Sequence record: PZ386955.1
DNA length: 64,000 nt
Strand: one strand, 5' to 3'
Source: a phage
Shown here: positions 24,022 to 58,579 of the stretch, piece by piece
Numbering within the stretch: position 1 is the stretch's first letter
Layout of the letters: the number at the start of each line of letters is the position of its first letter
The notes under the pieces: model-generated
Seen by the model: the letters and a program-made list of their open reading frames with translations, nothing else
Databases searched by the model: none
Told to the model about the DNA's origin: nothing
Program-made: the position numbers and the translations under genes

Positions 24022-24999
24022 TTAAGCAACAGTCTGGTCTTCTTTTTCAGGGAAGATTAAACTTGCAATAACACCCAACCCAAGAGTACCTAACACGATA
24101 TACATACTGATCGTCGGGTCAATGTGTGCTGGCAGGAAACTCATTTTTGCGTGCAGAGTTTCTGCAAACGGATGATACATCAGTTTTACACCCACAAACA
24201 CCAAGACTACGATAACTGCTTTCTCCAGATGAACCAAATACTTCAGTGCAACACTAAGAACAAAGAACAGAGCACGTAAACCTAAGATTGCACAGAGCAT
24301 CGAAGAGAACACCAGCAGAGGTTCTTGTGTCACTGCAATTACTGCTGGAACAGAGTCTACTGCAAAGATTACGTCAACCATTTCCATTACAAACACACAA
24401 ACCAGAGCCGGAGTTGCTACACGAACACCATTTTTGATTGTGAAGAACTTCTCACCATCCATCTGATCAGATACAGGGAACAGCTTACGAACAATGCGAG
24501 TAGCCCAGTGTTTAGAGTAATCAACTTCTGCATCATTATCTCCAGCGAATACCATTTTAGCCGCACAGAAAAGGATGACAGCACCGAAGAAGATATTAAC
24601 ATACCAGCCCAAACTCAACAAGTAAGTGCCTACTGCTACAAACACACCTCGGAAGACAATCGCACCTGCAATACCCCAAAGTAGAATCTTGTGTTGTAAG
24701 TGTGTGCTTTTAATACCAAAACTTGCGAATACTGCCACAAATACTACTAAGTTATCTACAGAAAGAGATTTCTCCAACACATACCCACTCAAGAACAAGC
24801 TCGCAAAATCAGCACCGTGTTGGAAGTATACAAAACCATAGTAGGCTAATGATACTCCAATCCAGAAAATTGACCAGCCAATTGCAGATTTAAATGAAAT
24901 TTCTTTGTTTTCTCTGTGTCCAAAGAAGTCAATACAAATCGACAAGACTAAAATACCCACTAAAACAACCACATCAATAATTGGGAAACCCAGTTGCAT
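24022..24999 (-). CDS. TerC-family integral membrane protein
   Basis: Multi-pass hydrophobic; YVLEKSLSVDNLVVF matches TerC signature. Confidence 0.75.
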   Translation of the reverse strand: MQLGFPIIDVVVLVGILVLSICIDFFGHRENKEISFKSAIGWSIFWIGVSLAYYGFVYFQHGADFASLFLSGYVLEKSLSVDNLVVFVAVFASFGIKSTHLQHKILLWGIAGAIVFRGVFVAVGTYLLSLGWYVNIFFGAVILFCAAKMVFAGDNDAEVDYSKHWATRIVRKLFPVSDQMDGEKFFTIKNGVRVATPALVCVFVMEMVDVIFAVDSVPAVIAVTQEPLLVFSSMLCAILGLRALFFVLSVALKYLVHLEKAVIVVLVFVGVKLMYHPFAETLHAKMSFLPAHIDPTISMYIVLGTLGLGVIASLIFPEKEDQTVA

Positions 25000-25076
25000 T
25001 CTTTTCTCCTCTTTAATGCGGAGGACAATCCTCCGCTCTATGTCTTATACTATAAACTGTTTTTAAAGAAAGTCAA

Positions 25077-45191: not shown

Positions 45192-45743
45192 ATGCGGATT
45201 ACTGATAAGTATGTGTTCTTCTTCTCGGCAAAAGATGAATTTAGCAACTGGTATCTATCATCTTTTATTGAACCTTTAGCTCCCAAGTATAATAATTCTA
45301 TTACAAGTTCTGTTGAATTTACTTGTGTGGAACAATATATGATGTGGAGAAAAGCATGTTTGTTTTATGATTACAACATTGCATCTTCTATTTTAACCGG
45401 AGATCTAAGATATACAGGAGAAAAAGAACAGGCATATTATAAGCGACTAGGCAGATTAGTTAAAGATTATGATGAAGATACCTGGGCTTCTTTACGGGAG
45501 AAGATTGTCAAGCGTGGTTTGTATCTTAAATACACACAAAATGAAGATCTCAAAAATAAACTTATAGCTTACGCAGATAAGGAGTTTGTAGAGGCAAGTC
45601 CTTATGATTCTATTTATGGTATCAAAATGGGGATGTGGGATCGGGACGTGGAAAATAAGGATTGTTGGAAAGGACAAAATCTTTTAGGAAAATGGCATAC
45701 AGACCTTGCTGTTTATCTAAAATCACAATCTGATATTTCCTGA
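45192..45743 (+). CDS. NADAR-family protein (YbiA-like ADP-ribose N-glycosidase fold)
   Basis: Blocks FFFSAKDEFSNW, FTCVEQYMMWRKACLFYD, EASPYDSIYGIKMG match E. coli YbiA/NADAR blocks; start overlaps stop of upstream ATPase gene. Confidence 0.8.
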   Translation: MRITDKYVFFFSAKDEFSNWYLSSFIEPLAPKYNNSITSSVEFTCVEQYMMWRKACLFYDYNIASSILTGDLRYTGEKEQAYYKRLGRLVKDYDEDTWASLREKIVKRGLYLKYTQNEDLKNKLIAYADKEFVEASPYDSIYGIKMGMWDRDVENKDCWKGQNLLGKWHTDLAVYLKSQSDIS

Positions 45744-45960
45744 TATTTTGAAAATTTTTACTTTTATAAAAAGGGGTGTGGGTTTCATGTACGGAAATCC
45801 ACCCTCTGAATAATATATCCAGAGTAAATATTATTCTGTACTCTGTTAATAAAGTATTTAATTTGTTTGTTGGACTATGGTATCTGATCTTTAAAAGGCA
45901 TACTATCTCTTAACTACTATTTATAACAGAACAGTAAAATCATTTTTATAAAAAGGACAA

Positions 45961-46160
45961 AATTATTTAAAGTTTTTACAGATTTTTGGATACAAATTTT
46001 GAAAATGAAAAGTTCAAGTTTGGTCAAAATTATTTAAAGTTTTTGTACGTATTTCTATCCAGATTTTGAAAATGAAAACTTCAATTTTTTAAAAATTCCC
46101 CAGTTTATTTAAAGTTTTTTTGCCTTTTTCCGTAGAAAAATCAAAAATGAAAAGTTCAAT
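45961..46160. repeat. three tandem ~65-75-bp direct repeats
   Basis: Each unit has ATTATTTAAAGTTTTT then TTTGAAAATGAAAAGTTCAA (internal TTGAA/TTCAA inverted repeat). Confidence 0.7.
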
Positions 46161-46183
46161 TTCGTGTTTTTATAGGTGTGTGT

Positions 46184-46883: not shown

Positions 46884-46912
46884 TTGACGTTCCTCACCTG
46901 GTAGCGTATTAT
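46884..46912 (+). promoter_or_regulatory. sigma70-type promoter (rightward), divergent from previous
   Basis: TTGACG-N17-TATTAT; leader contains start-stop minicistron AAGGAGGGCGCA-ATG-TAG. Confidence 0.55.
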
Positions 46913-47039
46913 TCATCTTGTCGAGGGGGGCGAGGCACAACGACAATAAACAAAAGGAGGGCGCAATGTAGGACGGGCAAAGGTGAGGATCTCCATAATC
47001 CACCGTCACAATAACATTACTTATAAAAGGTTGATAACG

Positions 47040-47135
47040 ATGATCAAGAAAGAAAACAGCTTGACGGTTGGAACGATTAACGCTATCATTCTAGCCGTTC
47101 CATTTTGGATTGTAGTAGCGGTTATTATCTTTTAA
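47040..47135 (+). CDS. 31-aa hydrophobic peptide (type I toxin-like / small membrane protein)
   Basis: MIKKENSLTVGTINAIILAVPFWIVVAVIIF; SD AAAAGG; downstream of long leader. Confidence 0.3.
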   Translation: MIKKENSLTVGTINAIILAVPFWIVVAVIIF

Positions 47136-47143
47136 AAATATTC

Positions 47144-47201
47144 TTGACAACGTTTTTTAATCTGATAAGATGTATCACATAGGGCGGCAATAGTGCCGCT
47201 C
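47144..47201 (+). promoter_or_regulatory. early promoter + GC hairpin cassette
   Basis: TTGACA-N16-TAAGAT then GGGCGGCAATAGTGCCGC hairpin, ~25 nt before ATG. Confidence 0.6.
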
Positions 47202-47223
47202 ATAACAGAAGAGAGAAATAATC

Positions 47224-47496
47224 ATGGCATCATATAGCGCATCAATGATCGTAGCTGGCATCACTGGTAAACCTATGCGCGGTGGCGGATCTTTCGCTAA
47301 TATTAATATTGATGGGCGTTTATCCCTGGACGCAGCGATCACCGTGGCACGGGAAACATTTAAAAAAGAATGTAATTTCAATAAACAAGATTATCTCGGC
47401 TTCGTTATTGAAAAAACCGCGCGCTTTGTTGATTATAAAAGCCCGAAAATGGTTGATACTACACTAAAAGCGCAAGATGTAGCATTTTTGCTTTAA
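47224..47496 (+). CDS. hypothetical early protein
   Basis: AGAGAGAAA SD; follows cassette. Confidence 0.5.
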   Translation: MASYSASMIVAGITGKPMRGGGSFANINIDGRLSLDAAITVARETFKKECNFNKQDYLGFVIEKTARFVDYKSPKMVDTTLKAQDVAFLL

Positions 47497-47499
47497 GGC

Positions 47500-47559
47500 T
47501 TGACACTGAAAAATAATTTGGTAATATCTACTACATAGGGCGGGAAATGGTTTCCCGCC
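47500..47559 (+). promoter_or_regulatory. early promoter + GC hairpin cassette
   Basis: TTGACA-N16-TAATAT; hairpin GGGCGGGAAATGGTTTCCCGCC. Confidence 0.65.
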
Positions 47560-47581
47560 AAATCAAAGAAAGGGTAACACA

Positions 47582-47944
47582 ATGAGCAAGCAAATCAATA
47601 CTATCATGTTAAACCTGGTATCTTTCCGCGATGACGTGAAAAATCTTTCGCGTGATGCAGTAGATGCACGGATCGAAAGCTATCGCTCACAGATCGCAAC
47701 ATTACCGCTAAAACGTGATCAACATGCCGCTAATATGATGCTTAATGCTATGCTTAAAAAGATGATTCAATGTGATCTTACCCTGGCTTATGAATATGCT
47801 GGCGATCTCTTTGTAACATACAATAAGCCCGTTCCAGGTATGAGCACAACCAAAGAATTGCATGCCTTAAATCTGCGACAAGATGCATGGGATAATATGC
47901 GCCGCGTTATGGTATGGGTAGAAAGCGGCAAAATTTACGCATAA
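47582..47944 (+). CDS. hypothetical early protein
   Basis: AAAGAAAGGG SD; follows cassette. Confidence 0.5.
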   Translation: MSKQINTIMLNLVSFRDDVKNLSRDAVDARIESYRSQIATLPLKRDQHAANMMLNAMLKKMIQCDLTLAYEYAGDLFVTYNKPVPGMSTTKELHALNLRQDAWDNMRRVMVWVESGKIYA

Positions 47945-47948
47945 AGGC

Positions 47949-48004
47949 TTTACATTACACGAAAACCTGATAAGCTATCTTAAAGCGGGAATAGTTCCCG
48001 CTTT
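47949..48004 (+). promoter_or_regulatory. early promoter + GC hairpin cassette
   Basis: TTTACA-N16-TAAGCT; hairpin AAAGCGGGAATAGTTCCCGCTTT. Confidence 0.55.
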
Positions 48005-48020
48005 CATAGGATAAAACTTT

Positions 48021-48167
48021 ATGAAACAATATGTAATGAGTATTCACACCAAAAACGGCGCTACTGTTACGACTCCGGCACGGTTTGCACTTGTAAACCG
48101 TTGCAAGAGACTAAAACGAGAGTTAAAAAATAACCGTGCAACGGGCTTTAAACGCTGGGGAGGATAA
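48021..48167 (+). CDS. hypothetical small basic protein
   Basis: 48 aa; below ORF-track cut-off; follows cassette. Confidence 0.35.
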   Translation: MKQYVMSIHTKNGATVTTPARFALVNRCKRLKRELKNNRATGFKRWGG

Positions 48168-48169
48168 TC

Positions 48170-48442
48170 TTGTTTTTTCTAAAAGTTTTTGATAATGTGA
48201 TCGCTTTTGAACATGCTACAACGTTCAACCTGGCGAGATACGCTATCAGGTTTAAAGATAATGTTTATCCCCGTGCTGGAGGCGGTTACACTATTTTTAA
48301 TCATCGTAACGCTCAATTAACGGATATAACGAATCCAGATCCTGGAGTGTATCGCATAGGCTGGCTACCGTCAAAAGACGCGGCAAGCATGTTTAAGGTG
48401 TGTAAACTACTAACAGAAGAGGCGAACGAACATGGGGCGTGA
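48170..48442 (+). CDS. hypothetical early protein (TTG start)
   Basis: GGGGAGGA SD 6 nt before TTG. Confidence 0.45.
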   Translation: MFFLKVFDNVIAFEHATTFNLARYAIRFKDNVYPRAGGGYTIFNHRNAQLTDITNPDPGVYRIGWLPSKDAASMFKVCKLLTEEANEHGA

Positions 48443-48986
48443 ATATGTGATCCAGTCCTGGGTAAAGCATGATGCTGATGATCCGCGCATAATACCAGAT
48501 GACATGATCGATCACATGGTAGGGTATAGCGGGGAGCAGATAGGAAATCGAGCGGCAAAGAGCAACGGTCACACAAAAACGCGATCCGTTCGCCCTGGTT
48601 GGCTGGCAAATGGTAACGCTGACATTGCAAGCGCCGCAGATCCAAGCGATGACGCTAAAAATAATCCCTTATACAGCATTGATCCGGCTTTTAAGGTGTT
48701 AGAAGAGTATCCCGCTAAATTAGCCGCACTAGATAAGGCATACGAAGAAAAGCGCATGGCATGGACGGTATACAACACCGCTAAGATGGTGCTAGATGCA
48801 AAATTGATTAAAGCCCAGGAGAAGATCAATAAACTTGTTACCATAGCGCAAGAGGAAGACCAGGACGACCAGGAGGAAGAGGAAGAAATCATGCCTACCC
48901 TGGAAGAGGAAGAGATCCAGCCATACATGCCGACGGAAGAGGAAAAAAGACAAGCTCTAAAAAATTATGAAAATTGTGTTGTGTAA
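48432..48986 (+). CDS. hypothetical protein with poly-acidic C-terminus
   Basis: C-terminal QEEDQDDQEEEEEIMPTLEEEEIQPYMPTEEE. Confidence 0.5.
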   Translation: MGREYVIQSWVKHDADDPRIIPDDMIDHMVGYSGEQIGNRAAKSNGHTKTRSVRPGWLANGNADIASAADPSDDAKNNPLYSIDPAFKVLEEYPAKLAALDKAYEEKRMAWTVYNTAKMVLDAKLIKAQEKINKLVTIAQEEDQDDQEEEEEIMPTLEEEEIQPYMPTEEEKRQALKNYENCVV

Positions 48987-48989
48987 GGC

Positions 48990-49047
48990 TTGACATATAC
49001 AAACAAGCCCCGTAATATGTACCACATAAAGCGGGGCAACGCCCCAT
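48990..49047 (+). promoter_or_regulatory. early promoter + GC hairpin cassette
   Basis: TTGACA-N17-TAATAT; hairpin GCGGGGCAACGCCCC. Confidence 0.6.
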
Positions 49048-49067
49048 AAGGTGAAATAAAAAATCAC

Positions 49068-49095
49068 TTGACACCTGAAATCAGTAAGCTATAAT
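49068..49095 (+). promoter_or_regulatory. sigma70 consensus promoter
   Basis: TTGACA-N16-TATAAT. Confidence 0.65.
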
Positions 49096-49132
49096 GCTTA
49101 TATAGATTGAAACATTACTAAGGAATAAAAGC

Positions 49133-49312
49133 ATGGCTATTATTGCAAAGACTGAGATCGTAGGTTTAGATTCTATCATCCTGGCATATGAGGAAGCTAT
49201 AGAAATGTATGTGGTTTCCTATGGTGATTATATCCGTGAATATAAATCTATTGATCTAGCTTTTGAATGCTATATTCGCCAGGTCAATAAAGCCTATGAT
49301 GATTATCGTTAA
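49133..49312 (+). CDS. hypothetical small protein
   Basis: 59 aa, AAGGAA SD; below ORF-track cut-off. Confidence 0.4.
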   Translation: MAIIAKTEIVGLDSIILAYEEAIEMYVVSYGDYIREYKSIDLAFECYIRQVNKAYDDYR

Positions 49313-49407
49313 AAGTTTTAGTCTTGTGCTATTGACAACGAACGATAGTACAAGCATAATAACTTTTATCGGGAATACTCCTAACTAATCAAAAGAGATC
49401 AAAGACT

Positions 49408-49773
49408 ATGGCTAAAAATATCAATGTTTCTGCTTATGCTACCCTGGCTAACACTGCTAAAATTGAACTATCCAGCATTGAAGCGGTACATATTAGCGCC
49501 CGTCGCTGGTTTCAAAAGTCTTATGGTAACACTTATTTCTCTTTGATGGTTGACGTTGAGATCGGCGGTAAACTGATTGAAGTCGTTAACGTTCCGTTTC
49601 ACTATGGCTACGGGGATCATTTTGATACCGTCGCCCTGGAAGAATTTAGCAAGGTTATCAACCTGGAAGGTAAAGACTTTTCAAATTATGCTTACCTTTC
49701 CCGTTTTTGCCGTGATAATGGGATCGCTGTATACAGTCATGCAAGCGATGTTAAACGTAAAAAAGATTTATAA
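49408..49773 (+). CDS. hypothetical early protein
   Basis: AAAGAGA SD. Confidence 0.5.
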   Translation: MAKNINVSAYATLANTAKIELSSIEAVHISARRWFQKSYGNTYFSLMVDVEIGGKLIEVVNVPFHYGYGDHFDTVALEEFSKVINLEGKDFSNYAYLSRFCRDNGIAVYSHASDVKRKKDL

Positions 49774-49779
49774 AAAGCA

Positions 49780-49840
49780 TTGACAGCACGAATAAAAAGC
49801 ATATAATACTTATATCGAGAGCGGGAATAGTTCCCGCCTC
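49780..49840 (+). promoter_or_regulatory. early promoter + GC hairpin cassette
   Basis: TTGACA-N16-TATAAT; hairpin GAGCGGGAATAGTTCCCGCCTC. Confidence 0.7.
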
Positions 49841-49862
49841 ACTGAAAAAAGAGATTAACATC

Positions 49863-50102
49863 ATGGCTAAATCTAAAATGTTCTTAGGTCACAAAAACAA
49901 AACTCATTGGAATGTAAGCCTTTGGATCAACAACGATGAAGGTTTTTATAATCTTGCGCGTGAATTTATCGCAGCTAACACCAATAAGAATGACGCAGCG
50001 CGTGATATGATGTTATTTCTTGAAAGTATGGATCAAGATAAAACGCCAGACGGTTACAAGTTCAGTAAAACTGCGATCCGCGCCGCGATGGTTGGAATGT
50101 AA
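49863..50102 (+). CDS. hypothetical early protein
   Basis: AAAAGAGA SD; follows cassette. Confidence 0.5.
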   Translation: MAKSKMFLGHKNKTHWNVSLWINNDEGFYNLAREFIAANTNKNDAARDMMLFLESMDQDKTPDGYKFSKTAIRAAMVGM

Positions 50103-50197
50103 AGGAGACATAAAAATGAAACATCGTTCGACCTATCTCACAAAACGTTTTAGCTTAGATCATAAATTGGGCTATTACGGAAGAAATAGAAAATAAT

Positions 50198-50256
50198 TTG
50201 ACACTGTTTAAAATTCTGGTATAGTTTATCACATAGGGCGGGAAATGGTTTCCCGC
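50198..50256 (+). promoter_or_regulatory. early promoter + GC hairpin cassette
   Basis: TTGACA-N16-TATAGT; hairpin GGGCGGGAAATGGTTTCCCGCC. Confidence 0.7.
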
Positions 50257-50279
50257 CAAATGAAAGAAAGGTTATCATT

Positions 50280-50507
50280 ATGGCTATCGTTATTGTTCGT
50301 GTATCCGGCACGGTTGGAATCTCCCAGGTAGTAGCAGTTATCACCGAGAAGAAAGGGGATGATCTTCACTCTTCCTTGAATAGCTGGGCGGTCGCTAACT
50401 TCGGGCAATGGTCGAGCGTTGAGTACATCGAATCCTACCAGGTGCCAACGATTAGCCTAACCGATCTAAATGTTGATCGCTTGTTGTGCCTGGATGGATT
50501 AAACTAA
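50280..50507 (+). CDS. hypothetical early protein
   Basis: GAAAGAAAGG SD; follows cassette. Confidence 0.5.
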   Translation: MAIVIVRVSGTVGISQVVAVITEKKGDDLHSSLNSWAVANFGQWSSVEYIESYQVPTISLTDLNVDRLLCLDGLN

Positions 50508-50515
50508 AAATAATC

Positions 50516-50573
50516 TTGACAAGATAACTAAAATCAGTAAAATGTAATGCATCGGGCGGCAATAGTGCCGCTC
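50516..50573 (+). promoter_or_regulatory. early promoter + GC hairpin cassette
   Basis: TTGACA-N16-TAAAAT; hairpin GGGCGGCAATAGTGCCGC. Confidence 0.65.
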
Positions 50574-50594
50574 ATAGTAAGAGAGATTATCAAG

Positions 50595-50810
50595 ATGGCT
50601 AATATCCGCACACTGTTAAAAAATGCAAGTCAAGTTTTATTTTCAGATGACGAGTATTTCAACAAAGACATTACAGGCGTGAAAAATTTAAAAGACGTGA
50701 AGGATGTTATCGGTATCCGTGGATCTTTACGTAAAGGTGACATATACGGTAACAAGGTGCAATATAAACTGTCAAAAGATTATGATTTTACTTTGACAAT
50801 TATCAACTAA
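50595..50810 (+). CDS. hypothetical early protein
   Basis: Start moved to ATG 50595 (AGAGAGA SD); track start lies inside the hairpin. Confidence 0.5.
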   Translation: MANIRTLLKNASQVLFSDDEYFNKDITGVKNLKDVKDVIGIRGSLRKGDIYGNKVQYKLSKDYDFTLTIIN

Positions 50811-50821
50811 GGGATCACAAA

Positions 50822-50980
50822 ATGAAAACTTGCCAATGTGGTAAAAAGTCTATCTCTGGTTTAAAACGTGGCGTTGCTCTTTGTCAATATCACTATAACG
50901 CTCAAACGTGGGGTAAGCAGTGGGCGGATCAGGTGGAAGAGGCAAAGAAAGAAAATATAAAAGTAGTTGCAAAGAAATAA
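50822..50980 (+). CDS. small Cys-containing protein
   Basis: 52 aa with CQCG...C motif; below ORF-track cut-off. Confidence 0.4.
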   Translation: MKTCQCGKKSISGLKRGVALCQYHYNAQTWGKQWADQVEEAKKENIKVVAKK

Positions 50981-51005
50981 AAATAGAGTAAACTGTATTC
51001 ATCAA

Positions 51006-51027
51006 GGCGGTGGAATAGCCAACCGCC
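51006..51027 (+). promoter_or_regulatory. GC hairpin (cassette variant)
   Basis: GGCGGTGGAATAGCCAACCGCC imperfect hairpin ~25 nt before ATG; weak TTGCAA/TAAACT upstream. Confidence 0.4.
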
Positions 51028-51051
51028 TAACAAAGAGAAGAGGAAAACACC

Positions 51052-51222
51052 ATGATCACTTTCGCCACCCGTGAAGCCGCTCGCAACGTTGCACGTAAAG
51101 TTAATGCCGCCAACCTGGGCGCTACGCTTAAAGCCCCGGTAAAAGATGAATCAGGAAAATGGATCTTCCCTGGTCTGCGTCACGCTGATAAGCTGGGAAC
51201 ATTAACGTTAAAAAATAAATAA
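51052..51222 (+). CDS. hypothetical small protein
   Basis: 56 aa; GAGAAGAGGAAA SD. Confidence 0.4.
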   Translation: MITFATREAARNVARKVNAANLGATLKAPVKDESGKWIFPGLRHADKLGTLTLKNK

Positions 51223-51229
51223 TATCCGC

Positions 51230-51288
51230 TTGACAGTAGCATGATTTATAAGTAAAGTAACAACAACGGCGGGAAATGGTTTCCCGCC
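51230..51288 (+). promoter_or_regulatory. early promoter + GC hairpin cassette
   Basis: TTGACA-N17-TAAAGT; hairpin CGGCGGGAAATGGTTTCCCGCC. Confidence 0.65.
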
Positions 51289-51308
51289 AACAATAAAGAG
51301 ATAAGATT

Positions 51309-51668
51309 ATGAAATCAGTAAAAGCAATCAAAACTTACATTGTATCGGCTATTTCTTTTGAAGGTACTACAACCGAAAAAGAAAAAATCACCGAACTGAT
51401 GCGCCGTTTTAATTCTGAATACTGGTATCCCGATAATCAAAAACGTTACAATTATAACGTGATCAAGGCGATAGCCTCATGGTTACAAGGTTTACCGTCA
51501 GACATTAACATCGCCTTTGATTATAACGAGATTGATCATTTATTAATTGAATGGAAGTACATAAAAGAAACAAGCAAAGAAACAACCGTTACCCGTGAGC
51601 GGGAAAATTATTGGTTATATATTGCAAGCATGATCGTAATCCTGGCAAAACAGCATAACGTGGCGTAA
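51309..51668 (+). CDS. hypothetical early protein
   Basis: AAAGAGA SD; follows cassette. Confidence 0.5.
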   Translation: MKSVKAIKTYIVSAISFEGTTTEKEKITELMRRFNSEYWYPDNQKRYNYNVIKAIASWLQGLPSDINIAFDYNEIDHLLIEWKYIKETSKETTVTRERENYWLYIASMIVILAKQHNVA

Positions 51669-51683
51669 TTAAGAGGAAGAAAC

Positions 51684-51821
51684 ATGAACGCATCACAGCA
51701 GATCGAAAAATTCAACCGCAGCAAGGCGCGTAAAGATTGGAACGAAGAGATCACCAAAAAAGGCGACAAGCGGAACAAAACAAAGAGAGATCGCAGCACA
51801 AAAAGATACTGGAACGAATAA
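51684..51821 (+). CDS. small basic protein
   Basis: 45 aa, Lys/Arg-rich; AAGAGGAAG SD. Confidence 0.35.
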   Translation: MNASQQIEKFNRSKARKDWNEEITKKGDKRNKTKRDRSTKRYWNE

Positions 51822-51825
51822 CAAA

Positions 51826-51852
51826 AAAGGGCGCAATAAGCGCCCTTTTAGC
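51826..51852 (+). terminator. rho-independent terminator
   Basis: Hairpin AAGGGCGC(AATA)AGCGCCCTT + TTTAG. Confidence 0.7.
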
Positions 51853-51939
51853 TTATATAGAGGCTTGTTACCCATAGGCAATGGTAACGCCAGGATAAGC
51901 CTATAAACCACGTTAGACAGCTTTACAGGAGCTTTAAAA

Positions 51940-52122
51940 ATGAAATTAGACGAAATAAGCAAGGCACTAGCCCAGGGGCAAAGGTTATGCGCCCGATATC
52001 GTGATCAATATGGCTTCATAACTAGCGGCGTGATCCTGGGGATTGAAGGCAATAAGATTTTTATTGACACGTTGAAAAACGTTGTATATAGTGACAATAT
52101 AATCTCAATAAAACATATATGA
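51940..52122 (+). CDS. hypothetical protein
   Basis: AGGAG SD. Confidence 0.4.
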   Translation: MKLDEISKALAQGQRLCARYRDQYGFITSGVILGIEGNKIFIDTLKNVVYSDNIISIKHI

Positions 52123-52130
52123 GGCAAGAA

Positions 52131-52532
52131 ATGAAAAAATTATTGATCGCTGGTTTAATCTCTTTTGGCATGGTTGGAACATCTAGCGCGGCGATATCCT
52201 CCACAGTAGCAGAATTAAGCGCCGTTGATGCAATGGAAAACGTCATGCTTATTAATAATGCGATCCCCGATGAAATCATGGAGGATTCACACATGATCGC
52301 TTATGGTGCTGTTACACAACTAACGGCAAAAATAGATAAATCTATTGTTAATGGCTTAAATGAAGATGTACCATGTGAAATTATTACCAGTGTGCTGACT
52401 ACTCAAAATTTTACGCCGTGGTTAAAAAGTATTCAAAAAGTACACAGTACAGCCGCAGATCGTAGCAATGAAAAACTAGTGTCAGCCCTTGCAACGTATA
52501 CCCTAGCAAAATGCACCGAGATAAAAGATTGA
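52131..52532 (+). CDS. putative secreted/periplasmic protein
   Basis: Signal peptide MKKLLIAGLISFGMVGTSSAA; start at ATG 52131. Confidence 0.5.
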   Translation: MKKLLIAGLISFGMVGTSSAAISSTVAELSAVDAMENVMLINNAIPDEIMEDSHMIAYGAVTQLTAKIDKSIVNGLNEDVPCEIITSVLTTQNFTPWLKSIQKVHSTAADRSNEKLVSALATYTLAKCTEIKD

Positions 52533-52579
52533 CAACATAGAAAGCACGTTATAAGATACACACAACAAAGGAGAACTAC

Positions 52580-52882
52580 ATGAACGGCATAGCTAAAACG
52601 TTTTTTCTTTTTTCTGGTGTAAATGATCCATCAATAAAAGTCGATAGTGTAAAAGAAAACAATACTATCACCGCTAAATTGTTTCAAGATGAAACAAATA
52701 ACGTGCTAATCATTAATCTTAAAGAAATAACGAAAGGTTATTATACTATTGCTTACCATGCGATTTATCATGCTGGTACTAGTGAGGAAGTGCAAACAAG
52801 CAACAACGAAAGCGCGGCGCTACCTGGTGATCTGGTACTGGGCGTTATCAGTTTAATTGTCAATGATTTTTTTAAGGAGTAA
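52580..52882 (+). CDS. hypothetical protein
   Basis: AAAGGAGAA SD. Confidence 0.45.
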   Translation: MNGIAKTFFLFSGVNDPSIKVDSVKENNTITAKLFQDETNNVLIINLKEITKGYYTIAYHAIYHAGTSEEVQTSNNESAALPGDLVLGVISLIVNDFFKE

Positions 52883-53140
52883 AACCATGCCCTATTTACA
52901 TTTATTTTTCGGTATCTTATTGACGGGATCTTTTTTCTTCTGTATGCTTGTTTCTATTGTAAACCACGTTTTAAGACATTAAGGAAACAGCATGAAAATT
53001 ATTCCCGTACAATATAGCGTAATAAATCCAGCATACGAGGAAGGAAGGAAAACAAGCATGGCTTTATGTTGTATTGCTACTATAGCCATGTTGTTATACA
53101 TTGTGTTTTAATAGGTTTTATAGTTGTACGCTTTAAAGGC

Positions 53141-53168
53141 TTGACAATTTTTTGTTATGCTTTAAACT
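53141..53168 (+). promoter_or_regulatory. sigma70-type promoter
   Basis: TTGACA-N16-TAAACT. Confidence 0.45.
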
Positions 53169-53211
53169 ATATCTTGAAAACGGCAAAGGCCGCAAACAAA
53201 AGGGTAAAATT

Positions 53212-53535
53212 ATGAAATCTGTGATCGGTGTTTATTTGGATAACTCTGATTTTTTCTATCATCGCGCTCGTTTCCTTGATGCTATTGATATGATAGAATC
53301 AGGCTTTAAAGAGTATCGCCTTGCACATGATGACCTGGAAGCATTACAGGGCAATAGTGTTTTTACATTGCAAGCTAAAGCACTATGCAAAAGCCGGATC
53401 GACATTGCGAGCAAAAAGATAGAACGCGGCATGTCCTGGTTGCGCACCGCAGAAATCAACATGGGGCAATGGTACGGCGAAAACTTAGAAAATAAACATA
53501 CTTTTGTCAATGTAGAAAATATTGAAGATTATTGA
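53212..53535 (+). CDS. hypothetical early protein
   Basis: Start at ATG 53212 (AAAAGGG SD). Confidence 0.5.
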   Translation: MKSVIGVYLDNSDFFYHRARFLDAIDMIESGFKEYRLAHDDLEALQGNSVFTLQAKALCKSRIDIASKKIERGMSWLRTAEINMGQWYGENLENKHTFVNVENIEDY

Positions 53536-53598
53536 TTGACAGCACACCTAACAGATAGTATATTGTATCTCATAGAGCGGGGAAATGGTTTCCCCGCC
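53536..53598 (+). promoter_or_regulatory. early promoter + GC hairpin cassette
   Basis: TTGACA-N17-TATATT; hairpin GAGCGGGGAAATGGTTTCCCCGCC. Confidence 0.7.
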
Positions 53599-53617
53599 TT
53601 AACAGAAGAGATAAGAT

Positions 53618-53902
53618 ATGAAGATCACAAAAGCACTTTCCAACTATGCAGCACGTCGCGGATTATGTTTAACCGTTGAAAATTTAGGGAAAGAAGATTT
53701 TTTGTGCTTTTGGGAGCTTGAGAATGATAATGAGTGGATCTTCTCTTATTCTATCTGCGAAGATCAAAACGGTTGTTTATTAACCTGGCGCGGTAATATC
53801 TATTTACCGGAAGAAATCAAGGAAGAATTACCAGGCACGATCATGACTGAGAAACAGCTTAAGGAAGTGATTAATTTTGTAGGGCAAAACATTAAAAAAT
53901 AA
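53618..53902 (+). CDS. hypothetical early protein
   Basis: AGAAGAGA SD; follows cassette. Confidence 0.5.
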   Translation: MKITKALSNYAARRGLCLTVENLGKEDFLCFWELENDNEWIFSYSICEDQNGCLLTWRGNIYLPEEIKEELPGTIMTEKQLKEVINFVGQNIKK

Positions 53903-53903
53903 T

Positions 53904-53964
53904 TTGACACCAGGCAAACAACGTAGTAAAGTTTATCACATAGGGCGGGAAATGGTTTCCCGCT
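53904..53964 (+). promoter_or_regulatory. early promoter + GC hairpin cassette
   Basis: TTGACA-N17-TAAAGT; hairpin GGGCGGGAAATGGTTTCCCGC. Confidence 0.65.
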
Positions 53965-53985
53965 CACAACAAAAGAGAACAAATC

Positions 53986-54156
53986 ATGATCCCGACTATG
54001 TTTTACGTATCGCGCAAAGGTCACAATATTTTTTGGTCTGAAGATTTAAATGAAGCCATGACGTTTGCCCGTGATCGTGTTGCTATCGGTGGCGTTAACA
54101 TTACTGTAACCGATGAAAACGGCATTGAATACTATAACGGCGACGATGAAGAGTAA
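53986..54156 (+). CDS. hypothetical small protein
   Basis: 56 aa; AAAGAGAA SD; below ORF-track cut-off. Confidence 0.4.
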   Translation: MIPTMFYVSRKGHNIFWSEDLNEAMTFARDRVAIGGVNITVTDENGIEYYNGDDEE

Positions 54157-54161
54157 TTAAT

Positions 54162-54184
54162 GAGGCGGGGGAGTATTCCCCGCC
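54162..54184 (+). promoter_or_regulatory. GC hairpin (cassette variant without obvious promoter)
   Basis: GAGGCGGGGGAGTATTCCCCGCC. Confidence 0.45.
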
Positions 54185-54203
54185 GTCAATAAAGAGGTAA
54201 ATC

Positions 54204-54473
54204 ATGAAAATATCATTGGACGTTGCAATCAAGGCCATCGAATCCGGTTACACCCTGGTAAAAGATGATAAGGCTAAAATAGTGCATCATGTTAACAAGG
54301 AAACAGGCGAAAGCATGATCACATATAAAGCCGCCTACTTTCTCCAATCAGTAGCAGATCCGCGCGTACAGCGCCAGGTCACGGCGGCTATTGCTAAAAA
54401 ATTATGTGCTTTACAGGGCACAAGTTTTAACGAGATCCCGCCGTGTTTTGACTGGTCGAGCTTGAAAAAATAG
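54204..54473 (+). CDS. hypothetical early protein
   Basis: AAAGAGG SD. Confidence 0.5.
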   Translation: MKISLDVAIKAIESGYTLVKDDKAKIVHHVNKETGESMITYKAAYFLQSVADPRVQRQVTAAIAKKLCALQGTSFNEIPPCFDWSSLKK

Positions 54474-54474
54474 T

Positions 54475-54532
54475 TTGACAAAAATTATAAATCGGGTAGA
54501 ATGTATTTCGTAGGGCGGCAATAGTGCCGCTC
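54475..54532 (+). promoter_or_regulatory. early promoter + GC hairpin cassette
   Basis: TTGACA-N16-TAGAAT; hairpin GGGCGGCAATAGTGCCGC. Confidence 0.65.
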
Positions 54533-54553
54533 GCAACTAAAAGAGAAATCATC

Positions 54554-54748
54554 ATGGCGCTTAAAAAACTAACAAGCAATACTCGTTGGGATGAAATCGA
54601 CGGGGAAGTATACATTTTCGCCCGTAAACCAGGTGATCAAAAATGGTCAAAGGCTTTTACTTGTCACCCTGCAACAATAGATCTAATAAAAAGTAAAGGT
54701 TTACGTGAAGCAGTAGCGAGAAGTTTACTGATTCCTTGTAAAAAATAG
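54554..54748 (+). CDS. hypothetical early protein
   Basis: Start at ATG 54554 (AAAGAGAAA SD). Confidence 0.45.
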   Translation: MALKKLTSNTRWDEIDGEVYIFARKPGDQKWSKAFTCHPATIDLIKSKGLREAVARSLLIPCKK

Positions 54749-54810
54749 TTTGACAATATGCGGTTATCTGGTAAAGTGTACCACGTAGGGCGGGGCAATA
54801 AGGCAACGCC
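54749..54810 (+). promoter_or_regulatory. early promoter + GC hairpin cassette (variant hairpin)
   Basis: TTGACA-N17-TAAAGT; GGGCGGGGCAATAAGGCAACGCCC. Confidence 0.55.
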
Positions 54811-54829
54811 CACTAATGAGGGTAAAATC

Positions 54830-54934
54830 ATGTTAGAGAAAATTTTCACGGTTGTAATAGTGGGCCTGGCGTTATCGGTTGGAGTGATTGCAACTATGGC
54901 TAACATGATCCTATCTTCCCACGGTATTGGATAA
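54830..54934 (+). CDS. 34-aa hydrophobic peptide
   Basis: MLEKIFTVVIVGLALSVGVIATMANMILSSHGIG; GAGGG SD. Confidence 0.3.
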   Translation: MLEKIFTVVIVGLALSVGVIATMANMILSSHGIG

Positions 54935-54944
54935 GGTGAATCAA

Positions 54945-55160
54945 ATGATCACGAATAAGACAGGTAAAACGGAATTTTTACGCGGCTTGCAAATAGGTAA
55001 ACCTGAGATCTGGCATTGCACTAAAAGACCACGTGACGAAATGAAAGATTTCACCGCTACTTTACAACGTGTTAAAATATCTATCACACAGAAAAAAGCC
55101 TTGTTAGTAGTAGAAAATGAGATACCGCAAACCATTATTATTGTCGAGCGTACAGCATGA
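54945..55160 (+). CDS. hypothetical protein
   Basis: Start at ATG 54945. Confidence 0.45.
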   Translation: MITNKTGKTEFLRGLQIGKPEIWHCTKRPRDEMKDFTATLQRVKISITQKKALLVVENEIPQTIIIVERTA

Positions 55161-55543
55161 AAACTGAAATCATTATTGAAATCATCAACGGTTATAAAGA
55201 AGCCTTTATTTTTGCTGAATCAGCCAGGGATCATGAAGGCTATTTTATTGATAACTTAGACGATTATGATTTTTCAGATCAAGCCCATCAGAGGATCATT
55301 CATGACGTAGCGGCTTATTGTGATGCCAATGATGCTGCTATCTCTGAGGCAATGAGCGACGGCGCTACAGCAAACCAGATCGGGAATGATTTACATTTTA
55401 CCCGTAACGGTCACGGCGTAGGCTTTTGGGATCGCCCTGAAATATACACTACTAACACCGCCAACCGCCTAACAAATGCAGCTAAATTAATGCCATCGGT
55501 GCATGCTTACATTGGTGAAGATAATTTGATTTATATTGAATAA
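55157..55543 (+). CDS. hypothetical acidic protein
   Basis: Start overlaps upstream stop (ATGA). Confidence 0.5.
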   Translation: MKTEIIIEIINGYKEAFIFAESARDHEGYFIDNLDDYDFSDQAHQRIIHDVAAYCDANDAAISEAMSDGATANQIGNDLHFTRNGHGVGFWDRPEIYTTNTANRLTNAAKLMPSVHAYIGEDNLIYIE

Positions 55544-55549
55544 AAAGTA

Positions 55550-55608
55550 TTGACACCGATCCCCAGTATGTTATTATTTACCACGTAGGCGGGAAATGGT
55601 TTCCCGCC
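55550..55608 (+). promoter_or_regulatory. early promoter + GC hairpin cassette
   Basis: TTGACA-N16-TATTAT; hairpin GGCGGGAAATGGTTTCCCGCC. Confidence 0.7.
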
Positions 55609-55631
55609 AGGTAATCAAAAAGGTAAATACT

Positions 55632-56021
55632 ATGCGCAACCTGGTTTCTGTTTCTAACGTTGAAAAATTCCAATCCTTGCAGGGTATCGTTAACAACGTA
55701 GCGCCTTTTTTAGTCAATGGCTTGATTGCAAAGATGAAAAATAAACATCATGCGGCATGGTCTGCTTACTGCTTTGATAATGATGAAAAAGCGGCTGAAA
55801 TGATGTTAAATATGCTGTTAGACAGTGTAGAATCATCTTTACCGGAAAACATCGCAGAAGAGATCACCTATCGTTATAATATGGCGATCACTTACCAGGA
55901 AGTGGCGCAGTTTAACATGATGGATGAAGATGACCAACAGGATCAGGAAATGTTTTGGGAGTATGCAGATCGTCAATCGGCTTTTGATGAAAAGTTAGCG
56001 ATGTATTATAACGAATATTAA
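55632..56021 (+). CDS. hypothetical early protein
   Basis: Start at ATG 55632 (AAAAAGG SD). Confidence 0.5.
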   Translation: MRNLVSVSNVEKFQSLQGIVNNVAPFLVNGLIAKMKNKHHAAWSAYCFDNDEKAAEMMLNMLLDSVESSLPENIAEEITYRYNMAITYQEVAQFNMMDEDDQQDQEMFWEYADRQSAFDEKLAMYYNEY

Positions 56022-56035
56022 TACACGGCAAAAGA

Positions 56036-56062
56036 AAGGGGCGCACTAAGCGCCCTTTTTTG
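56036..56062 (+). terminator. rho-independent terminator
   Basis: Hairpin AAAGGGGCGC(ACTA)AGCGCCCTTTTTT. Confidence 0.75.
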
Positions 56063-56406
56063 TATTCTTTTTTCACAATGGAAGCGACACGTAAAGAATA
56101 GGCGTAAAGGTGGCGTAAAACCATCTAAAACCGACTGTAACCGCTTAAACAAGGTAGGAATGATTAATCACCTTACCAGGATGAAAAAGCTGTTATAAAG
56201 CTATCTAGAGCGTTTAAAGCACATAGGAAATAATTTGCTTTTTATCTTGCCTTTTGTCCTACTTTTGATTATTATTATGGAACGGGCGGCACCTGGGAGC
56301 AGGGGAAGATAATCACCGGAAGATCCCGCTATATATTGATAGCTAATATCTATTAAACAACAAAACATCAAAGGAATAAACTATCAAATCTTTACAATCT
56401 TATCTA

Positions 56407-56435
56407 TTGACCAATAAATCACAATAGTTTAATAT
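56407..56435 (+). promoter_or_regulatory. sigma70-type promoter
   Basis: TTGACC-N17-TAATAT. Confidence 0.45.
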
Positions 56436-56483
56436 TGTTTTTAGAGGGTAGAATATTCCCCGAACGAAAACAGGAAAAAGAAA

Positions 56484-56720
56484 ATGAAAGAAGTCATGAT
56501 CCTCAAAAAATCACCTATTTTACGTGGCGGTTTTATCGCTTACTCTGATGATCTGTTAATTGCAACAGTTGCAAAAATACTAAAATCAGAAGATGACAGT
56601 AAAAACGGCGTTTATCGTATCTGTTTCACCCGTGGAAAATTACAAGGCAAGATCGCTTATGCCTTTGATTTACAAGATGTAAACGATAAAATATGCGCTG
56701 TTATTGATTATGCAAAATAA
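56484..56720 (+). CDS. hypothetical protein
   Basis: AGGAAAAAG SD. Confidence 0.45.
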   Translation: MKEVMILKKSPILRGGFIAYSDDLLIATVAKILKSEDDSKNGVYRICFTRGKLQGKIAYAFDLQDVNDKICAVIDYAK

Positions 56721-56732
56721 TTAATTTTCTTA

Positions 56733-56761
56733 TTGACACCGGATCACGCTTACATTATTAT
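56733..56761 (+). promoter_or_regulatory. sigma70-type promoter (cassette with degenerate hairpin)
   Basis: TTGACA-N17-TATTAT. Confidence 0.5.
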
Positions 56762-56807
56762 TTATCACGTAGGGCAAATCATTTTAAACGGTAAACGAGG
56801 AATCACC

Positions 56808-57191
56808 ATGAGCAATATCATCAACCTGGCGGCTACTGTAAACGGTAAAGATTTTAACGGCGCTGTAGATCGTGATCCTATGTGGTGCTTATCAGTGTTT
56901 AAAGGCGATCTGGTTGAAGTTAGAACAACCGAAGGTTATAGCGACGATTATAAATGCGAGATTCATTTACACAACTGGTACACGGGTAAAACTTATGCGC
57001 TGAATCATGCGTTTATCGGGAAAATTGAATATCGCGAGATGATCGACGAGGAAACCGGGCAAGATTTTAGCGAAAACGTTTATATTCGTTCCGAGACATT
57101 AGCCGAACGTTTGATCGAGAAGATGAAAGCAAAAAATAAAATTAATTTAGCTCATTGGATTGATATAACAAACGATCCAGCTTATCAATAA
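56808..57191 (+). CDS. hypothetical protein
   Basis: Start at ATG 56808 (ACGAGGAA SD). Confidence 0.5.
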   Translation: MSNIINLAATVNGKDFNGAVDRDPMWCLSVFKGDLVEVRTTEGYSDDYKCEIHLHNWYTGKTYALNHAFIGKIEYREMIDEETGQDFSENVYIRSETLAERLIEKMKAKNKINLAHWIDITNDPAYQ

Positions 57192-57206: not shown

Positions 57207-57232
57207 AGGGCGCACAAAGCGCCCTTTCTTTT
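57207..57232 (+). terminator. rho-independent terminator
   Basis: Hairpin AGGGCGC(ACAA)AGCGCCCT + TTCTTTT. Confidence 0.7.
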
Positions 57233-57440
57233 ACCTCAATAAAGATGATAGCTTTTACCTATCAAAAACGTTCACCGAAAAAAGTGAATAGATCGCGGTA
57301 TCGAGCTAATCAAGGAGCAGATGAACAACCATACCATGAAGATCATAAGGCGCTTACAACGCGTTTTAGACCGCTTGTTTTTAATTTCTCCATGTAACTA
57401 TCTGGCAAAAACAGCCTTTTTCTTGTCTTTCCTCTTAAAT

Positions 57441-57456
57441 AATAATCATTCTCATT
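57441..57456. promoter_or_regulatory. Fur-box-like half-palindrome
   Basis: AATAATCATTCTCATT. Confidence 0.35.
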
Positions 57457-57492
57457 TGTAGCTGATTATTTATGCAATAAACTGAATAATGC

Positions 57493-57510
57493 AATAATGA
57501 TAATCATTCT
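57493..57510. promoter_or_regulatory. Fur-box-like palindrome
   Basis: AATAATGATAATCATTCT (16/19 to GATAATGATAATCATTATC). Confidence 0.45.
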
Positions 57511-58362
57511 TAACTTAAGACCATCTAACCTATAAAATAATAAGCTATCTAACTAAATTAAAGCTAATTATCTCACCTTTATTTATAACTTACTGTTACT
57601 ATCTCATTGATAACCTTATATTAAACAACAATAACTAATATAAATCATTACCAAGCTAAAGATAAGCTATCTAACCTTTAAAACTATAACTATAATCTAT
57701 CGAATTGTTGCACAAAGTAACTATTAAATTGTTAGTAACATTACTAAATAATTAATATCCTATCTATTTATGATCTAATCTTTACCTTCCTATCTATTAC
57801 CTAAATAATCATTTCATACAATAACTATAACAAGAAATATAATTCGCAAGCGTATCATTAGCAGCCTATGCCGGACACATAGGCGGCTAATAATAACGCA
57901 ACTACACACCCCACATAATAACCATCACCGATAGTTATTATTTGTGCTTATGTAGCTTGCAACAATTGCAAGCGCAACAATATACATGGTATATTGTATC
58001 CCTTACATTGTTGCGGTGCGTTATTATTAGCTAATGTTTAGAACATTGGCTATAATATAAGCTATCCAATAATAATAAGCTATACAATAATAAACATAGT
58101 GAATAATGACCCCCGATGATCATAATGCGCCACCTTCCAGGGGGCGCTATGTGAACACAAAGAAACCTTTCTTGTCAAGAAAAATATTGCCACTATTGCG
58201 CAAAATTATTTATATCTGAATAGATGATTTTTCATACTATTGCCCCCAATACTATCCCTATTTGTTGCCCTAACTATTGTCATTTGTTGAGCCTACTTTC
58301 TTAAAAGCGCAATAAATCAGAATTATCTTGATTTTTAGGGCGTTTTATAGTATAGAAAATAT

Positions 58363-58381
58363 GCAAATGATAATCATTATC
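58363..58381. promoter_or_regulatory. Fur-box-like palindrome
   Basis: GCAAATGATAATCATTATC: 16 contiguous identities to Fur consensus; just downstream of TTGATT...TATAGA promoter-like site. Confidence 0.5.
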
Positions 58382-58548: not shown

Positions 58549-58579
58549 AATGATAATGCAAATGATAATTATTCTCATT
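58549..58579. promoter_or_regulatory. tandem Fur-box-like palindromes
   Basis: GAATGATAATGCAAATGATAATTATTCTCATT. Confidence 0.45.

Follow-up and report, generated by a model that had tools for sequence, protein, structure and literature searches.

A recurrent promoter-hairpin-Shine-Dalgarno cassette before the small early genes of a phi92-like phage, conserved across genera and coinciding with points of rearrangement

The small genes between positions 47144 and 56761 of the 64,000-nucleotide stretch of phage DNA analysed here (sequence record PZ386955.1; the whole stretch is hereafter called the window) are preceded again and again by one composite unit. Its parts follow each other in a constant order: an A/T-rich tract, a -35 hexamer, a spacer of 16-17 nt, a -10 hexamer, a short motif, a GC-rich hairpin, an A-rich spacer containing a Shine-Dalgarno (SD) sequence, and the ATG. 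We found that this composite unit is conserved among related phages, that its hairpin is held as a structure at a fixed place and that the cassettes are points of rearrangement. The cassette is a real, conserved and well-defined regulatory unit. On balance, we consider it probable that the unit is an early-gene expression cassette in which a 5'-proximal hairpin shields or insulates the mRNA, and in which the shared motifs serve as recombination points.

The window is from a phage of the genus Justusliebigvirus of the subfamily Stephanstirmvirinae (phi92-like myoviruses). The 9.7-kb interval carrying the cassettes matched 286 phage records, and the best matches were the Escherichia phages ESCO8, Nernie and Paula (97-98% identity), which belong to this genus.

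Promoter-like sites, defined as having at least 10 of 12 consensus matches to sigma70-type hexamers, were collected from the region of 46-58 kb, and 20 of the 22 sites were located on the plus strand. A perfect GC-rich hairpin without a T-run was present 7-16 nt past the -10 at 11 of these 20 sites, against a background frequency of 0.5-1.3% for such a hairpin (binomial P ~2e-16). The sequence GGGCGGGAAATGGTTTCCCGCC occurred in five copies at no more than one mismatch (none expected, based on 100 shuffles), GCGGCAATAGTGCCGC three times and GCGGGAATAGTTCCCGC twice. When bulged stems and weaker promoters were also counted, 13 complete cassettes with promoter, hairpin, SD and ATG could be identified, two of which have a weaker promoter (TTTACA at 47949 and TTGCAA at 50967). 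Beyond these 13, one promoter and hairpin lack a gene (48990) and one hairpin with SD and ATG lacks a promoter (54164); hairpins are degenerate at three promoters (49332, 53141 and 56407), and four strong promoters have none (49068, 52064, 52529 and 56733). The initial annotation had described a recurrent promoter-hairpin unit in 47.1-56.8 kb, before at least 14 small genes and with an AAAGAG-type SD. The sequences are indeed found at these coordinates and far above chance; its count is about right if 48990 and 54164 are added to the 13 cassettes, and the SD sequences are of the AAAGAG/AAAGG type. The limits of the interval are also correct, 47144 being the first -35 and 56761 the end of the last -10, although the last promoter of the interval, at 56733, has lost its hairpin. 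One further cassette was found outside the interval, on the minus strand (25076-24997). The individual features are listed below (open reading frame, ORF; free energy of folding, dG).

47144..47226, plus strand: cassette; TTGACA-N16-TAAGAT; hairpin 47184-47199 GCGGCAATAGTGCCGC, whose stem reaches 8 bp if a G.U pair is included (dG -14.4, z -3.96); SD AGAGAG; ATG 47224
47500..47584, plus strand: cassette; TTGACA-N16-TAATAT; hairpin 47539-47559 GGCGGGAAATGGTTTCCCGCC (dG -15.4, z -3.6); ATG 47582
47949..48023, plus strand: cassette with a weaker promoter; TTTACA-N16-TAAGCT; hairpin 47982-48004 AAAGCGGGAATAGTTCCCGCTTT; ATG 48021
48990..49045, plus strand: orphan promoter and hairpin without an ORF, probably the remnant of a deleted module; TTGACA-N17-TAATAT; hairpin 49033-49045 GGGGCAACGCCCC; the next promoter follows directly
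49068..49135, plus strand: consensus promoter with an unstructured leader and no hairpin; TTGACA-N16-TATAAT; ATG 49133
49332..49410, plus strand: promoter with a degenerate hairpin remnant; TTGACA-N17-CATAAT; remnant 49371-49381 GGGAATACTCC; ATG 49408
49780..49865, plus strand: cassette; TTGACA-N16-TATAAT; hairpin 49821-49837 GCGGGAATAGTTCCCGC; ATG 49863
50198..50282, plus strand: cassette; TTGACA-N16-TATAGT; hairpin 50237-50257; ATG 50280
50516..50597, plus strand: cassette; TTGACA-N16-TAAAAT; hairpin 50556-50571 GCGGCAATAGTGCCGC; ATG 50595
50967..51054, plus strand: cassette; TTGCAA-N16-TAAACT; bulged hairpin 51006-51027 GGCGGTGGAATAGCCAACCGCC, whose stem is perfect in muut and KKE7M; ATG 51052
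51230..51311, plus strand: cassette; TTGACA-N17-TAAAGT; hairpin 51268-51288; ATG 51309
52064, plus strand: strong promoter without a hairpin; TTGACA-N17-TATAGT; ATG 52131
52529..52582, plus strand: strong promoter without a hairpin; TTGACA-N17-TAAGAT; ATG 52580
53141..53214, plus strand: promoter with a weak 4-bp hairpin; TTGACA-N16-TAAACT; hairpin 53181-53192 CGGCAAAGGCCG; ATG 53212
53536..53620, plus strand: cassette; TTGACA-N17-TATATT; hairpin 53577-53597 GCGGGGAAATGGTTTCCCCGC; ATG 53618
53904..53988, plus strand: cassette; TTGACA-N17-TAAAGT; hairpin 53945-53963; ATG 53986
54164..54206, plus strand: hairpin, SD and ATG without a promoter, GGCGGGGGAGTATTCCCCGCC; directly past the upstream stop codon; ATG 54204; conserved in ESCO8, muut and Paula
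54475..54556, plus strand: cassette; TTGACA-N16-TAGAAT; hairpin 54515-54530; ATG 54554
54750..54832, plus strand: cassette; TTGACA-N16-TAAAGT; internal-loop hairpin 54788-54811 GGGCGGGGCAATAAGGCAACGCCC; ATG 54830
55550..55634, plus strand: cassette; TTGACA-N16-TATTAT; hairpin 55588-55608; ATG 55632; the gene belongs to the PVP-SE1 gp184 family
56407..56486, plus strand: promoter with a weak bulged hairpin; TTGACC-N17-TAATAT; hairpin 56446-56461; ATG 56484
56733..56810, plus strand: promoter without a hairpin; TTGACA-N17-TATTAT; TATCACGTAGGGC motif; ATG 56808
51825..51849, no strand assigned: terminator-type hairpin with A/T-run flanks, AAAAGGGCGCAATAAGCGCCCTTTT; related copies at 56033-56061 and 57207-57225
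24997..25076, minus strand: isolated cassette; TTGACT-N16-TATAGT; hairpin 25036-25018 GCGGAGGATTGTCCTCCGC, with an unrelated stem; SD AAAGAGGAG; ATG 24999; 325-aa ORF

The geometry of the unit was measured on 43 distinct cassettes from four genera. The distance between the -10 and the stem is 9-15 nt (most often 11-12), and that between the stem and the ATG is 18-25 nt, with a median of 22. The sequences of the -35/-10 spacers are not conserved between cassettes. Past the -10 lies a recurrent motif, (T)ATCACATAG or CACGTAG, which is followed by the hairpin. Escherichia coli RNA polymerase usually starts ~7-8 nt past the -10, and leaders were folded from the 7th-8th nucleotide on this assumption. 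Twelve leaders fold into a single hairpin (dG of -14 to -17 kcal/mol, z of -3.1 to -4.4), and the predicted start leaves 2-6 nt unpaired before the stem. The SD and the AUG are unpaired in most of the predicted folds; a weak second helix touches this region in three leaders. In all cassettes, the predicted start site precedes the hairpin, whose proposed location within the 5' untranslated region (UTR) of each transcript is thus borne out as far as geometry can show.

Among the 28 perfect GC-rich hairpins of the whole window, 11 are promoter-coupled, two are of the cassette type without a strong promoter, 10 are terminator-type hairpins with a T-run and five are others. None of the 11 promoter-coupled hairpins has a T-run on the strand of its own promoter. 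The mean content of the 8 nt past the stem is 1.7 T and 3.6 A, and none of the 10 promoter-coupled hairpins on the plus strand of the region has five or more T in these positions. These figures bear on the view that the hairpins are terminators or attenuators of read-through from upstream cassettes. Such a role would suit their GC-rich, stable stems, which resemble Rho-independent terminators in size and stability, and the GenBank records of Paula and PATM do label cassette hairpins as 'terminator'; in addition, one stem-loop of the promoter-stem-loop cassettes (PeSLs) of T4-type phages lowered lacZ read-through in a reporter (PMC2839356). However, the tail past the stem is A-rich with no T-run on the coding strand, and the hairpin stands between promoter and SD rather than after a transcription unit. 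As each hairpin lies past its own promoter, termination at it would also cut short the mRNA of the very gene that follows. Moreover, the region has separate terminator-type hairpins with A/T-run flanks at 51825, 56033 and 57207. A terminating role is thus highly improbable, and was rejected on sequence as the U-tract of Rho-independent terminators is lacking. The 'terminator' labels on the hairpins of 47184-55608 in the records of Paula and PATM are probably annotation errors, given the lack of a T-run and the position between promoter and SD; in the Paula record, they lie on the strand opposite to the genes. The three terminator-type hairpins share the core GGGCGCA(A/C)(T/A)AAGCGCCC and are separate from the cassette hairpins, so that the terminators of this region are also a reiterated sequence family.

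The initial annotation had listed transcript stabilisation, processing or antitermination sites, and binding of a common regulator as possible functions. Judged from sequence, stabilisation appears to fit the anatomy best. Each cassette would be self-contained and read by the host sigma70 RNA polymerase, with transcription predicted to start ~7-8 nt past the -10, inside the conserved CA(Y/R)(R/Y)TAG motif. A GC-rich hairpin of 6-10 bp would then begin ~3-6 nt from the predicted 5' end and fold in the RNA at the very start of each early message, to be followed by an A-rich, unpaired spacer of 18-25 nt with the SD and then by the start codon. Together with the initiating ribosome just downstream, the hairpin would leave little single-stranded 5' RNA, which may slow 5'-end-dependent decay (by RppH and then RNase E). 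It may also insulate the ribosome site from sequences further upstream, and in read-through transcripts it could shield the 3' terminus of the preceding message. Base-paired 5' ends are known to resist RNase E (PMC3997798), and 5'-terminal stem-loops stabilise the ompA and papA mRNAs (Emory, Bouvet and Belasco, 1992; Arnold et al., 1998; both as cited in PMC3997798). The cassettes resemble these stabilisers in having a stable hairpin a few nt from the 5' end (a predicted position here) and then an accessible ribosome-binding site (RBS). On the other hand, the ompA and papA stabilisers are single, gene-specific elements whose effect on half-life has been measured, whereas each genome repeats the present hairpin, as part of a promoter-coupled module, in front of at least a dozen genes, and a stabilising effect of this hairpin is putative. 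The T7 gene 10 leader, with its 5' stem-loop, is likewise comparable.

The motif and hairpin also superficially recall boxA and boxB: close to early promoters, the conserved linear sequence CAYATAG is followed by a short hairpin, and terminators exist downstream (51825 and 56033). The hairpins might accordingly be nut-like antitermination sites that modify RNA polymerase, or RNase processing sites at which polycistronic early RNA is cut. Lambda-type nut sites require a conserved loop and stem, and recognition of the boxB type is sequence-specific, whereas both loops and stems of the cassettes vary within one genome. There would also be little need for antitermination, because nearly every gene has its own promoter. 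A scan of the whole window against Rfam 15 at the gathering threshold gave no matches. RNase III needs a stem of ~20 bp, and an RNase III site was rejected as the stems of 6-10 bp are too short. Altogether, an antitermination or processing role seems extremely improbable.

To follow the unit across genera, we fetched the regions around homologs of the gene at 55632-56021 in Klebsiella phage KP13-26 (Stephanstirmvirinae), Av-05 (Avunavirus) and PVP-SE1 (Seunavirus), and compared the early region of rV5 (Vequintavirus). All four have the same promoter-hairpin-SD geometry with other stem sequences. Loss of the hairpin in related genomes had been named at the outset as evidence that would speak against the unit; instead, the hairpin is kept across five genera. 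Slots were defined by protein homology, independent of the presence of a hairpin. Ten distant orthologous slots were compared, at least seven of which have kept the hairpin. In the orthologous slots of other genera, the promoter hexamers are conserved and the spacers have diverged. The gp184-family slots of three other genera have kept the hairpin with changed stems. The 5' arms found before genes of this family are GGCGGGAAA, GGCGGGAA, GACGGGGA and GCCGGGGAA, each with a matching 3' arm, so that the second pair runs through G:C, A:T and C:G. In one slot that is otherwise identical in four close relatives, the hairpin core alone differs, GG[GAAATGGTTTC]CC versus GG[CAATAGTG]CC, and both of the swapped cores are self-complementary. 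Pair counting on 21 representative hairpins gave 85.7% paired positions versus 66% in shuffles and double changes at all seven pairs (7/7), and the covariation found by RNAalifold and pair counting was unmatched in 500 shuffles. It should be noted that this set was chosen for containing a hairpin; its covariation is thus only supportive, and the weight lies on the slots defined by orthology.

In the complete genome of ESCO8, 12 of 18 promoter-hairpin matches fall in the corresponding small-gene region of 63.6-73.3 kb, and two isolated units, at 27999 and 96444, stand before genes elsewhere and have unrelated stems. The preferred stems are genus-specific (for example, CCGGGG in PVP-SE1 and GACGGGG in Av-05). 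A scan of IMG/VR for the exact pattern of promoter and commonest hairpin found only three loci on two contigs, and this exact variant is therefore confined to a narrow lineage.

The same observations allow the idea of a common phage or host regulator to be weighed, in which the palindrome would be a DNA operator at +4 to +25, or an RNA hairpin bound by a repressor or nuclease, through which the early genes are shut off together. Operators classically sit just past the transcription start, the stems form perfect dyads, often of the 9-3-9 kind, and most copies in one genome fall into two or three sequence families; genus-specific stems could moreover reflect co-evolution with a protein. However, a single genome has at least six different stems, its loops vary (TGG, ATAG, TAG, AAC, TTG and AGTAT) and isolated cassettes carry the unrelated stems GCGGAGGA and AGGAGAGC. 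Pairing and position are conserved, but not sequence. Gene conversion between cassettes, which was directly seen, explains the genus-specific stems equally well, and no regulator candidate was found among the ten larger proteins of the interval scanned against Pfam and PHROGs. We therefore regard such a regulator as unlikely. The initial annotation's suggestions of a sequence-specific common regulator or a nut-like antitermination site are both disfavoured by the six or more stem and loop sequences within one genome and by the compensatory stem changes between genera.

With respect to gene content, the interval is highly variable, as only 7 of the 286 matching records cover at least 80% of it. 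We compared the region of 46.5-57.5 kb by blastn with eight Justusliebigvirus genomes, taking each cassette with 10 bp on either side; the cassettes cover 21% of the region. Before breakpoints were collapsed to events, 41 of 52 fell within cassettes; after collapsing to 11 distinct indel events, 15 of 19 did so, versus the 21% expected (P = 1e-7). The junctions share 6-17 nt of (micro)homology and correspond to the following parts of the cassette.

TATTGAC: the -35
AAAAAATAGTTTGACAA: the upstream tract plus the -35
GTAAA: the -10
TATCRYGTAGG: the initial-transcribed motif
GGGCGGC: the 5' arm of the hairpin
ATGGCTA: the start codon

Several individual changes could be followed. The promoter at 56733 lost its hairpin together with one gene, both of which are present in ESCO8, by a deletion between two TATCRYGTAGG motifs, and the entire module of 56411-56731 is absent in BME3, PATM and AMO3598. 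A 156-bp insertion is found at the 54750 site in KKE7M, BME3 and AMO3598, and the 53904 slot has the GCGGCAATAGTGCCGC core in ESCO8 and muut in place of the hairpin of the window. The same short motifs stand in front of many genes, which makes the cassettes the points of gene deletion, insertion and replacement and of the exchange of hairpin cores between slots, and the early region evolves by module shuffling. The breakpoints mapped among relatives thus give strong support to the proposal that the cassettes drive such shuffling.

Breakpoints and a core swap in or beside the hairpin could also be taken to mean that the palindrome has no role in expression, and is a selfish or hitch-hiking element that is kept for promoting recombination and gene conversion or is a by-product of them. 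In line with this, the hairpin is dispensable at several promoters and the RNA strand is not singled out by folding asymmetry. On the other hand, the distances to the -10 and the ATG are tightly fixed across genera with diverged stems, which a recombination substrate would not need, and the stems are not decaying but are repaired by compensatory change. Taken together, a hairpin that serves or results from recombination only appears quite improbable.

Several points weigh against an expression cassette with a protective 5' hairpin. First, our literature search found no measurement of transcription starts, RNA half-life or termination for this phage group. Second, a start located 1-2 nt further upstream would leave 5-6 unpaired nt, and these may suffice for RppH or RNase E. 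Third, the hairpin is not essential: strong promoters such as those at 52064 and 52529, and also 49068 and 56733, stand without one, so it is not obligatory, and in rV5 it was found at only ~4 of ~17 promoters of the early region. Fourth, sense and antisense folding differ at P = 0.0095 over all copies but at P = 0.45 per hairpin class, and this asymmetry does not single out the RNA strand over a symmetric DNA palindrome. Finally, the breakpoints at cassette edges could partly reflect survivorship of intact promoter-gene units rather than a preference of recombination.

A more specialized role is also conceivable, in which the hairpin is the handle of a dedicated system, that is, a phage factor that reads its shape for the early-to-middle switch, or a structure-specific nuclease or recombinase that actively mobilises the modules, as with the mini-circles of PeSLs. 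We consider this rather doubtful; if true, the cassettes would represent a new class of mobile regulatory elements in Stephanstirmvirinae and Vequintavirinae that arose independently of the PeSLs of T4-type phages.

The PeSLs are the closest known kind of element, and the present cassettes share their logic but not their build. They have been described for the T4-type phages RB49/phi1, T4/PST and KVP40/nt-1 (Arbiol et al., 2010, PMC2839356; Comeau et al., 2014, PMC4122927); their stem-loops were interpreted as terminators or attenuators, and genes flanked by the cassettes excise as mini-circles (PMC2839356, PMC4122927). In both systems, an early promoter of the sigma70 consensus type (here TTGACA-N16/17-TAnnnT), preceded by an AT-rich tract, is joined to an adjacent stable GC-rich stem-loop, an SD and a start codon in one intergenic unit, which is reiterated before the small ORFans of a hyperplastic region, and the breakpoints of indels and replacements between close relatives fall in the cassettes. 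They differ in lineage, Straboviridae for the T4-type phages versus Stephanstirmvirinae/Vequintavirinae here, and in the place of the stem-loop. When the hyperplastic region of RB49 was scanned with the same script as the window, stem-loops were found in the -35/-10 spacer in six cases (-24 to -6 relative to the end of the -10) and spanning the -10 in four (-16/-14 to +5), but never 9-15 nt past it, whereas the present hairpins always lie in the predicted transcribed leader at a fixed distance from the ATG. PeSL stem-loops are described as lying inside, over or ahead of the promoter hexamers, usually in the -35/-10 interval or on top of the -10, with one minor subclass 'downstream of the -10' (PMC2839356, PMC4122927). 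In contrast with the PeSL stem-loops, interpreted as terminators, the hairpins of the window have no T-run and are predicted 5'-UTR structures. The likeness to T4-type cassettes drawn in the initial annotation is thus sound in that such cassettes are indeed described (PMC2839356, PMC4122927), but it is not exact, as the RB49 stem-loop lies within or across the promoter hexamers. We also observed in the PeSL leaders of RB49 (114.7-134.6 kb) a conserved initial-transcribed motif past the -10, ACACACATC/ACACCCATCGAAACGA, resembling (T)ATCACATAG; both motifs may reflect an optimal CA start context for the host polymerase.

Another comparison can be made with the REP/BIME elements, reiterated intergenic GC-rich palindromes of enterobacterial chromosomes that can protect flanking mRNA and act as recombination points. 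The cassette hairpin is also a reiterated intergenic GC-rich palindrome; unlike it, REP/BIME elements have no promoter and SD joined to them at set spacings and are not known from phages, and similarity to them was sought by the Rfam scan only, which had no matches.

We found no description of these cassettes in phi92/rV5-like phages by literature search; the genome papers of PVP-SE1 and phi92 lay outside this search, and a prior mention there is possible. Literature searches on transcriptomics in these genera, and on the sequences of the hairpins, likewise found nothing, and the rV5 paper and its Table S4 give promoters and terminators with no remark on hairpins. Our results outline how the most variable early region of phi92/rV5-like phages is probably organised into transcription units. 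These phages are widely isolated for therapy, and their early ORFans are candidate host-takeover and anti-defence genes. Furthermore, cassette-mediated shuffling, so far reported for T4-type phages, seems to be at work in a myovirus lineage unrelated to them, whose cassette is built differently; this would be an instance of convergence in genome architecture. The rigid geometry of promoter, 5' hairpin and RBS would also be a natural counterpart of the insulated expression parts of synthetic biology.

The interval carries ~30 small ORFs on the plus strand. Nine of the ten larger proteins scanned against Pfam and PHROGs matched only PHROGs of unknown function, with no Pfam match. The last gene (56808-57191) is a homolog of Pfam Phage_30_8 (T4 gp30.8; E = 6e-29), a family that also occurs in the hyperplastic regions of T4-type phages. 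A tRNA scan found none.

The next block of small genes on the plus strand (59.0-64.0 kb) is densely packed, often with overlapping genes, and has a few strong promoters (60404, 61384 and 63547), all without hairpins; the cassette architecture is thus specific to the block of 47-57 kb. Between the two blocks, positions 57230-58890 form an AT-rich stretch of ~1.7 kb in which no ORF reaches 60 aa and which corresponds to the 'non-coding' box of rV5. This stretch contains a Fur-box-like palindrome at 58363-58381, GCAAATGATAATCATTATC, with two mismatches to GATAATGATAATCATTATC, another at 57493-57511 (three mismatches) and a related copy at 58556-58580, that is, three matches versus 0.04 expected. 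From their sequence, these palindromes may serve iron/Fur-responsive control or titration of host Fur.

Upstream of the cassettes, three tandem direct repeats of ~70-75 nt each (71-73% identical) were observed at 45942-46162, in the non-coding gap between the ORF of 45192-45743 and divergent promoters at 46503 (minus strand) and 46884 (plus strand). These iteron-like repeats are perhaps an origin or a regulatory array. The strong promoter at 46884 (TTGACG-N17-TATTAT) is followed by a G-rich leader (GAGGGGGGCGAGG...) and by ~150 nt without a convincing ORF, before the ATG at 47040 and the promoter at 47061. Two deletions in relatives (muut and BME3) begin at 46884-47040, and this segment may represent a non-coding early transcript or a decayed cassette.

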